From NCBI GenBank assembly GCA_044892525.1, contig CM097887.1, forward strand, positions 20,398,001 to 20,462,000: 64,000 bases of DNA. The letters are read 5' to 3'. This DNA comes from Schmidtea polychroa. Lineage: Eukaryota. Below the pieces are notes generated by a model that was given only the letters and a program-made list of their open reading frames with translations, was not told where the DNA came from and searched no databases. Shown piece by piece: positions 57,355 to 60,300 of this stretch; position 1 is the stretch's first letter, and the number at the start of each line of letters is the position of its first letter. Made by a program: the position numbers and the translations under genes.

Positions 57355-60300
57355 TTATCTTATTTCATTTATTTTTCGAGGTTCACTTTTCCATTTGCTC
57401 CAGTTTTCTCCACTCCGAAATTTAGCCCAACAATATCGTGGTTTTAGAATCATTTCCTTTTCCCAAAATTTGTTTACGGTCATCCATACCTCCAGGTAAT
57501 AATCTACCATTTCGACTATTTGATCGATTTCTCGTTCTATAAGCATTTTATCGTTCCTTACTCGGGCTAAGGCATTTTGAATTAACAATGATAGTGATGT
57601 TACCACTTTCGCTCTTGTTAATCCATGCTGTACGAATGCTTCTATGGCATCCTGAATATCTCCTGTTGATACATCTTTGGGTATACTATCCATTGCCTTC
57701 TTGGCCTCTTTTGTTATCTTCTTTTCTTCGATGCCCTTGATTTTTTGAATTCTCCATTCGGGCCTGATAATCCCGATCATTTGTTGTATACGTTGCCACA
57801 ATAACGACCTCTCTGGCGTTATCTCATCTTCCGCCTGGTCGTCCATTCCTTGAGCTATCCCTGCTAATGTTTTTAGCTGAATTTTCCGAATCATTTCCGG
57901 ATTTAACTGCTCCTTGGGTGGAGGTTTCATCCTTTCTCGTCCATCTTTTTTCACTTTCTCCGGGGGTTTTTCAGTCTCCGGATTTGTTACTGCTTGTGAC
58001 GTAGTAGCTCCTACGTTTGTTTCTCCTGGATTTAATCTGACGTACTCTGAGAAGTAATCTTCCTCGTCAATGTCCACCATTTGACAGGGATTAATTTCCT
58101 CTAGCCTTATTTCCTCGATCTCTTCCGCAATTTCGTTTGCTATATCTGGCAGTCTCATTATTAATCATTAATGACCACTGGGATTCAGGTGGAGTTACTG
58201 GGATGATCATTACCGTGGTTGTTGCCAACGGTAGACAACCCACATCCACTAGGTATTCATCATCATCCACTTGCCTACCATGGACCATTATCAGGAATAT
58301 ACCTGAAGTTTGATCGGTGGCAATCACATCTCTCCTTAATATTTTAACCTTGATATAACAATTATAAATCATTGTTAATGGTTCTTTTCCCATCATTCTC
58401 ACGTCTAGATTAATGTTGCCTTGTCTATCAGGCTGACTTCGAATAGCTTTCCCATTTTTCCTCATCAGTGCTTCGATTTGCGTCTGGAATGGGCTTGTTT
58501 CCTTTACCACTGGTAGTATAAGTGGAATTATTGCTTCCAACAAATCTACTGGTATTCGTAATACTAACATCCATTCAAGTATTTCCTTTATAGTTTCTCA
58601 ATCTCGTGGAGATTTCTGCAATTCTAACCCTAGTCGCTGGGTTAATTGTTGAGTTTCCTCCAATCTCTCTATTTCCATCTGAGTAATCAAGAATACGCTA
58701 TCTTGATCCATTACTGCCACTGGCTTCTGTGCTCTCTTTGCTGTGAGCTTCGTCACTCTACCTGGGAGTATCCCGTTCTGTAGAAGTGTTTGATCTGCTT
58801 CTAGTTTTATTCCACACAAGTATAAGTCATATCCTTGATGCTTAATACTTGTCAATGTTTCCGTTAATTTATCGGCTCGACTTCTTACGTTTATATCGAG
58901 ATTATACTCTTTATCCTGTGGGAGTTTTATATTGAGTTGGGCATCTTGGAGATCCCACTCATGTTCCATGAGTTTTCCTAATTTCCTTAGGATTTTGTAC
59001 GTGTCGTTATGATACTTTGGATCATCTTCGACCTGCGATATCAGTTTTACTACTGTATCGATTTCGTGAATTTTAATCTCTGTTTCTCCCAATTTTTTCA
59101 ATTGTCTGGCCAGCTTCTGCTGGTACTTATACCTGGTATCCACCAGTTTTAAACATTTTGTTAGAGTATCTGACCCTTCTTTTACCTTTGCTTTCCCTGG
59201 CAAGGTTCTATCGAACTCGCTTAGTATGGTGGCCATACTAGGTTCATCATCGGAACTCTCCCTGATTCCGTTTCCTGAAGGTCCTCTCTAACGGAGTCCT
59301 TTTTTCTGAGAAATTCATCTCTTACAACTTCTACCATAAAGATGGTGCCTTCTTGGTCGGTCAATCTAGCCAACCTATTCTTTTCCTCCTGGATTTCCAT
59401 TTCCAGTTGTTGCAGATAAGTTAACCCTTGATCCTGATTAACCATAAAAGTTGTCTTAGGCTTGTTCACATTACCCTTATCGGTTTTTTTATTGAACTGA
59501 CCCGTGTTTTCACTCTGATTCTGAGGACATGACCTCATCATATGTCCGAATTTCCCACATCCGTGACATTTTATCTTTCCTGATGAATTTACATCATCTC
59601 TTTTAATTGTACTAAAATTATTGCTGTTCTGAGGACTTCTAGTCTTGCAGACCGCAGCAACATGTCCCTTTCGTTTACATTTTTCGCATTGCAAATTCTG
59701 CACTCTACAATTTTCGCACCGTGGTTATTCCGTCCACATTTGGTACATTGTATACTTTTGCGATTGTCCATAATTTTCCTGCTGGTACAATCTTTCGCTA
59801 TATGCCCTTTTCTATGGCAATTGAAACACTCTACCGGTGTTCTTTCACTGTTTACAAGGAACATGGTTGACTTTTCCAAGCTGCTTTCAATTACGACAGC
59901 TTTCCGTGTCAATTCGTCAAAATCATCACTAGTATGTAATATTAGGGCGTTCCTCATTGTAGGAGTAAGTCCTGCCCATAGCTGATCCTTAACTAACAAT
60001 TCTGTTGGCTTTGCTTATGTGGTTTTTGGACCAAATGCTCTTTCAGCAATTAATGATAGCTGGTGTGCAAATTCCCCACATGTTCATTGGCATTCTGTTT
60101 TCGATGATAAAATTGTTGTCTAAATATTCTTCCCGCATCTTCGGGCAATATTCGAGCAGTCATTTGTTCTCTCACTTCGGCCCATGTTTTCGGTGCTTGA
60201 GCAACTGGTAATGCCATTATGTCATTATATTTTTCTCTGGCCAGCCCCTTCAGATAAATGGGTAACCTTTGTATCATGATAATATCTGGATAAGCATACA

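Follow-up and report, generated by a model that had tools for sequence, protein, structure and literature searches.

Two predicted ubiquitin-like domains in a planarian retrotransposon Gag form part of a duplicated, selected helix-bundle unit that may serve as a protein-binding adaptor

The window, a stretch of 64,000 nucleotides from Schmidtea polychroa (GCA_044892525.1, contig CM097887.1, positions 20,398,001 to 20,462,000), carries on its minus strand a decayed LTR element represented by its 5′ half; the copy stops near 47683 without its 3′ part. The features of this copy and its immediate neighbors are listed below (Ubl, ubiquitin-like domain).

61577..61956, minus strand: isolated helix+Ubl fragment of sister family B, not part of the window element
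60521..61563, minus strand: 5′ LTR, decayed in the window copy, about 1.0–1.1 kb in intact copies
60500..60517, minus strand: primer-binding site after the LTR, presumably tRNA-Trp-like
59835..60421, minus strand: Gag capsid region from the first Met, with no matrix-like domain; frameshifted in the window copy
59520..59830, minus strand: nucleocapsid zinc knuckles (zf-CCHC)
58967..59194, minus strand: four-helix bundle 1 (model helices 16–91)
58727..58945, minus strand: Ubl-1, predicted β-grasp, no GG; P/Y/T at ubiquitin positions 8/44/70
58436..58663, minus strand: four-helix bundle 2, homologous to bundle 1; stop at 58598–58600 in the window copy
58184..58429, minus strand: Ubl-2, predicted β-grasp, no GG; M/M/M at ubiquitin positions 8/44/70
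57919..57951, minus strand: AT-hook (RGRP) site, deleted in the window copy, retained in 37 of 40 copies
57450..57900, minus strand: Bcl-2-like domain with degenerate BH1 (hhalign to host Bcl-2; sub-cut-off Pfam in a sister family)
53123..57432, no strand assigned: inserted 4.3-kb solo LTR of a different element (TG...CA; 4-bp ATAT duplication)
51605..53070, minus strand: hydrophobic signal/anchor stretch and gB/chuvirus-type Env (PF24664), short by about 440 bp in the window copy
51105..51420 (approximate), minus strand: late-domain-like words (LPPY, PSAP, YPxxxL) between the Env membrane segment and the protease
47683..50959, minus strand: protease, RT, RNase H and integrase in Ty3/gypsy order

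The foreign solo LTR splits the Bcl-2-like part from Env, and the PSAP word reads SSAP in this copy. The Pfam Retrotrans_gag match is weak in the window copy (E 0.041), compared with E 0.006 in an intact copy and E 7e-8 in family B. The original prediction had counted a third, diverged coiled-coil plus Ubl copy at 61575–61910. The helix+Ubl piece is real, but this 380-bp fragment belongs to family B and lies just outside the LTR of the window element. The solo LTR and a partial second copy of it (14054–15818) share a conserved ORF of 209–254 codons that includes a basic, NLS-like stretch and has no Pfam match; the solo LTR did not match the three loci of the planarian element Burro that we compared. 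Fragments of Burro LTR ends, 79–90% alike, lie at 2489–3209, 46090–46721 and 40277–40461, and an ORF cluster at 34625–40156 resembles, by eye, a decayed Polinton/Maverick (TBP-like, chromodomain integrase and capsid-like ORFs).

The genome searched comprised 781 Mb and included four large contigs. At least 40 copies of the window's family (family A) were found, 95–96% alike (189 candidates, 40 scored). An intact copy measures 14.9 kb, with 1,099-bp LTRs, an ORF1 of 3,353 amino acids and a second ORF of 761 codons. By Pfam, ORF1 alone encodes Gag, knuckles, a gB/chuvirus-type fusion protein, PR, RT, RH and IN. The PR-RT-RH-IN order, the paired LTRs and the primer-binding site are those of a Ty3/gypsy LTR retrotransposon, and the class III Env lies in frame between Gag and PR, all in one ORF (PF24664, E 4e-87 in the intact copy). 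The LTR pairs are 99.4–100% identical, and thus family A was recently active. A conserved stretch lies between PR and RT; the Pfam scan gave no dUTPase match there. ORF2 (L128:3608–5890, minus strand), 3′ of Pol and absent from the window copy, had no Pfam match; by eye it contains a DEDD-exonuclease-like stretch.

The two Ubls are predicted to be the β-grasp halves of a duplicated helix-bundle+Ubl unit within a single Gag-Env-Pol polyprotein. The original prediction had placed tandem Ubls inside Gag, and this observation is confirmed: the predicted structure has the β-grasp fold in both. The Ubl profile matched NEDD8 (E 6e-6) and ubiquitin (E 2e-4), the Ubl of family D scored above the Pfam ubiquitin cut-off, and ubiquilin UBLs were among the top single-domain sequence matches (E 0.005). 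Single-sequence structure prediction gave a pLDDT of 33 and was set aside. Word-index searches among longer proteins found nothing, which is weak evidence, and a search with PF11976 missed these Ubls, returning host polyubiquitin and a BEL/Pao family that is unrelated. The module is open and in frame with Gag in 16 of 40 copies, as well as in the intact 3,353-residue ORF1, where the order is nucleocapsid, Ubl units and Bcl-2-like domain. The best-kept Ubl residues are an acidic DDDEYL loop and the following Gly; from the established structure of ubiquitin, we take this loop to lie off the I44 face. A C-terminal di-Gly is missing from all 27 element Ubls, as had been noted for the window pair, so neither conjugation nor DUB cleavage is expected.

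Two units in an open frame occur in seven families of the genome (A, the window's; B, L046/L087; C, L081; D, L084; E, L115/L126; F, L118/L119; G, L120). An eighth family (L125/L130) has two units in broken pieces only, and a ninth (L160–L164, L169) has one; the number per element is one to about three. A profile search of 1.84 billion representative proteins gave 33 matches. Among the 21 of these that were scanned, the best were fragments of Gag polyproteins that carry one or two units, and the weaker ones included five ordinary poly-Ubl proteins and one TPR protein. One outside fragment, P0013, is a Gag-unit-AT-hook-Env polyprotein with four tandem aspartic-protease-like repeats. In family A the anchor stretch after the Bcl-2-like domain falls below the hydropathy threshold applied; in B, C and D it is above it. 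In families A, C and D, ORF1 goes on past the integrase into a second membrane-bounded domain with two hydrophobic segments (L128:5897–6900, minus strand; ORF1 residues 3040–3330), which is kept in family B despite the loss of Env and Pol.

Selection on the module was estimated from variants present in two or more copies. For these shared variants in family A, dN/dS was 0.17 for bundle 1, 0.14 for Ubl-1, 0.05 for bundle 2 and 0.03 for Ubl-2, compared with approximately 0.5 for singletons. Over the module, shared variants were 81 synonymous versus 25 non-synonymous, and singletons 61 versus 116 (p 6e-12). Unit 2 is constrained at the level of capsid and Env (0.03). The linkers, too, fall under 1 (0.15), and some of the constraint is therefore general to the ORF. 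The open frame and these dN/dS values support the earlier proposal of a natural in-frame Gag-Ubl fusion, conserved by selection across copies of an Env-carrying element. A neutral passenger, captured from the host and now decaying, is very improbable: the window copy is broken and distant families are merely 19–36% identical, but the shared-variant dN/dS of 0.03–0.17 contradicts this reading and the unit is kept in ten families and in outside proteins. Family B has neither Env nor Pol. In its 34 copies the capsid is constrained (dN/dS 0.12) whereas the module is not (16 synonymous to 43 non-synonymous; similar to its singletons, p 0.52; different from family A, p 1e-9), and the Bcl-2-like part is likewise relaxed. 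This suggests that the module is tied to steps involving Env or Pol, or that it is supplied in trans.

A Ubl in a planarian Gag-Env-Pol polyprotein has already been published as the layout of Burro, whose Gag has knuckles, MATH and a "Ubi2/SUMO-like (PF11976)" domain flanked by MATH and BCL-2, with Env in frame between gag and pol (PMC6431247, in the parts covered). Three loci of Burro were compared, 35 kb in size and with an ORF1 of up to 4,791 amino acids. The segment between MATH and Bcl-2 matched the whole helix+Ubl unit (E 5.6e-9 against two sequences; hhalign 93%, reversed control 0.3%), and two weaker units precede MATH (hhalign 55% and 16%, reversed controls 0.2–0.3%); a Ubl-only profile missed Burro. 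The helix+Ubl unit is thus a homologue of the published Burro domain. Family A resembles Burro1/GYPSM1 in its one polyprotein, Gag with CCHC knuckles, Ubi2/SUMO-like and BCL-2-like domains, and in-frame Env between Gag and Pol. It differs in size (approximately 15 kb, 1.1-kb LTRs and a 3,353-residue ORF versus approximately 35 kb, 5-kb LTRs and 4,791 residues), in its two adjacent units, and in that Pfam gave no MATH or BIR match. Family A has the Ubl homology and the following Bcl-2-like domain of Burro proper without its length above 30 kb, approximately 5-kb LTRs, MATH or BIR. The covered parts of PMC6431247 describe one Ubl and mention no helical partner, tandem array or AT-hook.

GAG-ENV-POL errantiviruses with an HSV/gB-type Env have been catalogued from Platyhelminthes, six of them, the Smed_errantivirus series, from a single planarian species, and family A shares their gene order and Env type (PMC13524379, in the parts covered). 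By eye comparison of Env with that list, family A is identical to none of the six and closest to Smed_errantivirus_4 (36 of the 50 first listed residues identical); the family D Env is nearly identical to Smed_errantivirus_2, and the one-unit family resembles Smed_errantivirus_3. The words "ubiquitin", "Bcl" and "Burro" are absent from the main text of that paper. In the literature searched, the tandem helix+Ubl unit is not described, nor is its clade-wide spread, the AT-hook or the relaxation in the family without Env and Pol; Repbase, figures and supplements, which lie outside that search, may note the unit.

The original prediction had proposed that the Ubls mimic ubiquitin, either recruiting ESCRT (Tsg101, ALIX, STAM) for budding or acting as decoys for ubiquitin/SUMO enzymes. 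The ubiquitin-like fold, the Env in the element and the relaxation of the module in Env-less family B are consistent with this. In engineered Gag-ubiquitin fusions, as here, a ubiquitin fold without GG follows Gag, but the fused domain is true ubiquitin and budding requires L8 and I44 (PMC2958808, in the parts covered). The element Ubls share only 8–12 of 76 residues with ubiquitin. When the patch positions were mapped by sequence alignment rather than on the model, with an uncertain loop register, Ile was found at 44 in three of the 27 element Ubls, Leu at 8 in two and Val at 70 in none; L8, I44 and V70 never occurred together, and R42 and R72 were not kept. On inspection of the Ile44 patch, as had been suggested, the canonical patch is lost, but position 44 holds a hydrophobic residue in 13 of the 17 second or single units, as opposed to 2 of 10 first units, and Ubl-2 of family A, with Met at all three positions, may retain a hydrophobic surface. 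On the cytosolic side after the Env membrane segment, late-domain-like words were present in the copies where this region was found (8 of the 11 stretches scanned): LPPY in 8/8, PSAP in 7/8 and YPxxxL in 7/8. In families C and D this post-Env linker contains SAPLY and YPxxxL. Such short strings can occur by chance. With ordinary words of this kind after Env, no substitute budding signal would be needed. Mimicry for ESCRT recruitment or as a decoy is therefore poorly supported, and we consider it improbable. Ubiquitin insertions in the polyprotein of pestiviruses (BVDV), which were among the viral fold matches, also place a ubiquitin fold in a viral polyprotein. They are GG cleavage signals for host DUBs, unlike the GG-less Ubls of the elements.

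Behind the last Ubl, an AT-hook is present in 37 of 40 family A copies, in the one-unit family, in Burro and in five outside proteins (P0004, P0006, P0011, P0013 and P0018). It is retained although the surrounding linker is poorly conserved (27–36%). RGRP is absent from families B, C and D, where only basic clusters are seen by eye. Pfam, PDB sequences and the Atlas gave no usable name for the bundle, and the fold-match lists were filled by Ubls. A TFIIS-N/LEDGF-IBD identity, suggested by eye, was not above controls: the hhalign score of 11 equaled that of reversed and shuffled controls, and hmmsearch scored forward and reversed sequences equally. A BAG1-like Ubl+BAG reading was rejected, as the domain order is reversed and AtBAG1 was matched by its Ubl only. 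CERV of Cer1, in the parts of its description covered, has different domains.

The neighboring domain, aligned as nine element rows, matched host Bcl-2 by hhalign (86%, 63 columns; the domain was tested for a BH2-like W..NGGW end), with a Pfam Bcl-2 match in a sister family (E 7e-6) that is below the cut-off. It adjoins the unit in all in-genome families examined. This adjacency, the MATH and BIR domains of Burro and the ubiquilin UBLs among the best single-domain matches point to a block acting on the host, in which the Ubls would bind the machinery of the proteasome, p97 or E3s and, together with the Bcl-2-like domain, keep the host cell alive or adjust polyprotein turnover. The shared relaxation of the Bcl-2-like part in family B agrees with such a role. 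However, proteasome receptors recognize the I44 patch, which is not kept, the BH1 NWGR motif is absent from all nine element rows, P0013 has the unit with no Bcl-2 match, and the AT-hook is left unexplained. Meddling with apoptosis and ubiquitination has been suggested in print (PMC6431247, in the parts covered). We regard this role as possible, though doubtful.

The units could instead stand in for matrix, as a spacer or lattice between the capsid and the Env-bearing membrane at assembly. Gag begins at the capsid with no N-terminal matrix-like region and would be anchored C-terminally; the units sit between the nucleocapsid and the anchor, they range in number from one to about three, as spacers might, and constraint is gone where Env is gone. 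The long, disordered, AT-hook-bearing linker between units and anchor speaks against this, and we think it unlikely.

Our preferred reading, to which we give a probability of roughly 0.38 and which we favor over the host-acting block, the matrix-like spacer and ubiquitin mimicry, is that the unit is a non-conjugated protein-binding adaptor which, with the AT-hook, would link host chromatin to the capsid or the integration complex. Downstream of the Bcl-2-like domain, the hydrophobic stretch would hold the Gag side in a membrane and double as the Env signal. The element protease would then release the [helix-Ubl]2-AT-hook block, and the freed block would bind capsid or integrase together with AT-rich DNA. 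MLV p12, the foamy-virus Gag chromatin-binding site and LEDGF/p75 are Gag-derived or host tethers of the integration complex to chromatin, and LEDGF combines AT-hooks with a helical domain that binds integrase. The likeness of the unit plus AT-hook to these would be one of functional analogy only. The retention of the AT-hook in a poorly conserved linker, and P0013, which keeps unit and AT-hook without a Bcl-2 match, argue for the adaptor. The missing RGRP in B, C and D, the control-level TFIIS-N/LEDGF-IBD scores and the sub-threshold hydropathy of the anchor stretch in family A argue against it, and the relaxation in family B suits the rival readings equally well. A bolder version, which we consider improbable, is a self-encoded LEDGF/p75-like tether in Gag: a helical bundle that binds integrase or capsid, together with a Ubl and an AT-hook, would occur in one to three repeats, be cleaved from membrane-anchored Gag-Env-Pol and steer integration to AT-rich planarian chromatin without a host cofactor.

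The tandem Ubl unit is real and under selection, its predicted folds have good structural support, and the pair more probably serves as a protein-binding adaptor than as a budding signal. Beyond the published Ubl, the analysis indicates that the Ubl is one half of a selected helix+Ubl unit common to the whole clade, in compact families of 15 kb, in Burro and in metagenome elements, and that the unit is usually followed by an AT-hook and is relaxed once Env and Pol are lost. It is a small, soluble module, open to testing, in elements that were recently active in a model animal. A self-encoded chromatin tether would reveal a novel means by which retroelements select where they integrate. Should the Ubls bind ESCRT despite the lost patch, they would form a natural Ubl late domain, of which we know no earlier example.

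A closer natural ubiquitin-Gag fusion than the window Ubls is found in high-copy BEL/Pao-type Gag ORFs (DUF1759) of the same genome, on which a literature search showed no paper by title. Near-canonical mono- or di-ubiquitin lies ahead of Gag and ends in RGG, AGG or CGG, so that it could be removed by DUBs of the host. Examples are L076:2466–6512 (minus strand), L078:3673–7857 (plus strand) and L079:2549–6007 (minus strand). Upstream pieces of these ORFs resemble captured host genes (phosphatase, EAP30 and a proteasome subunit).
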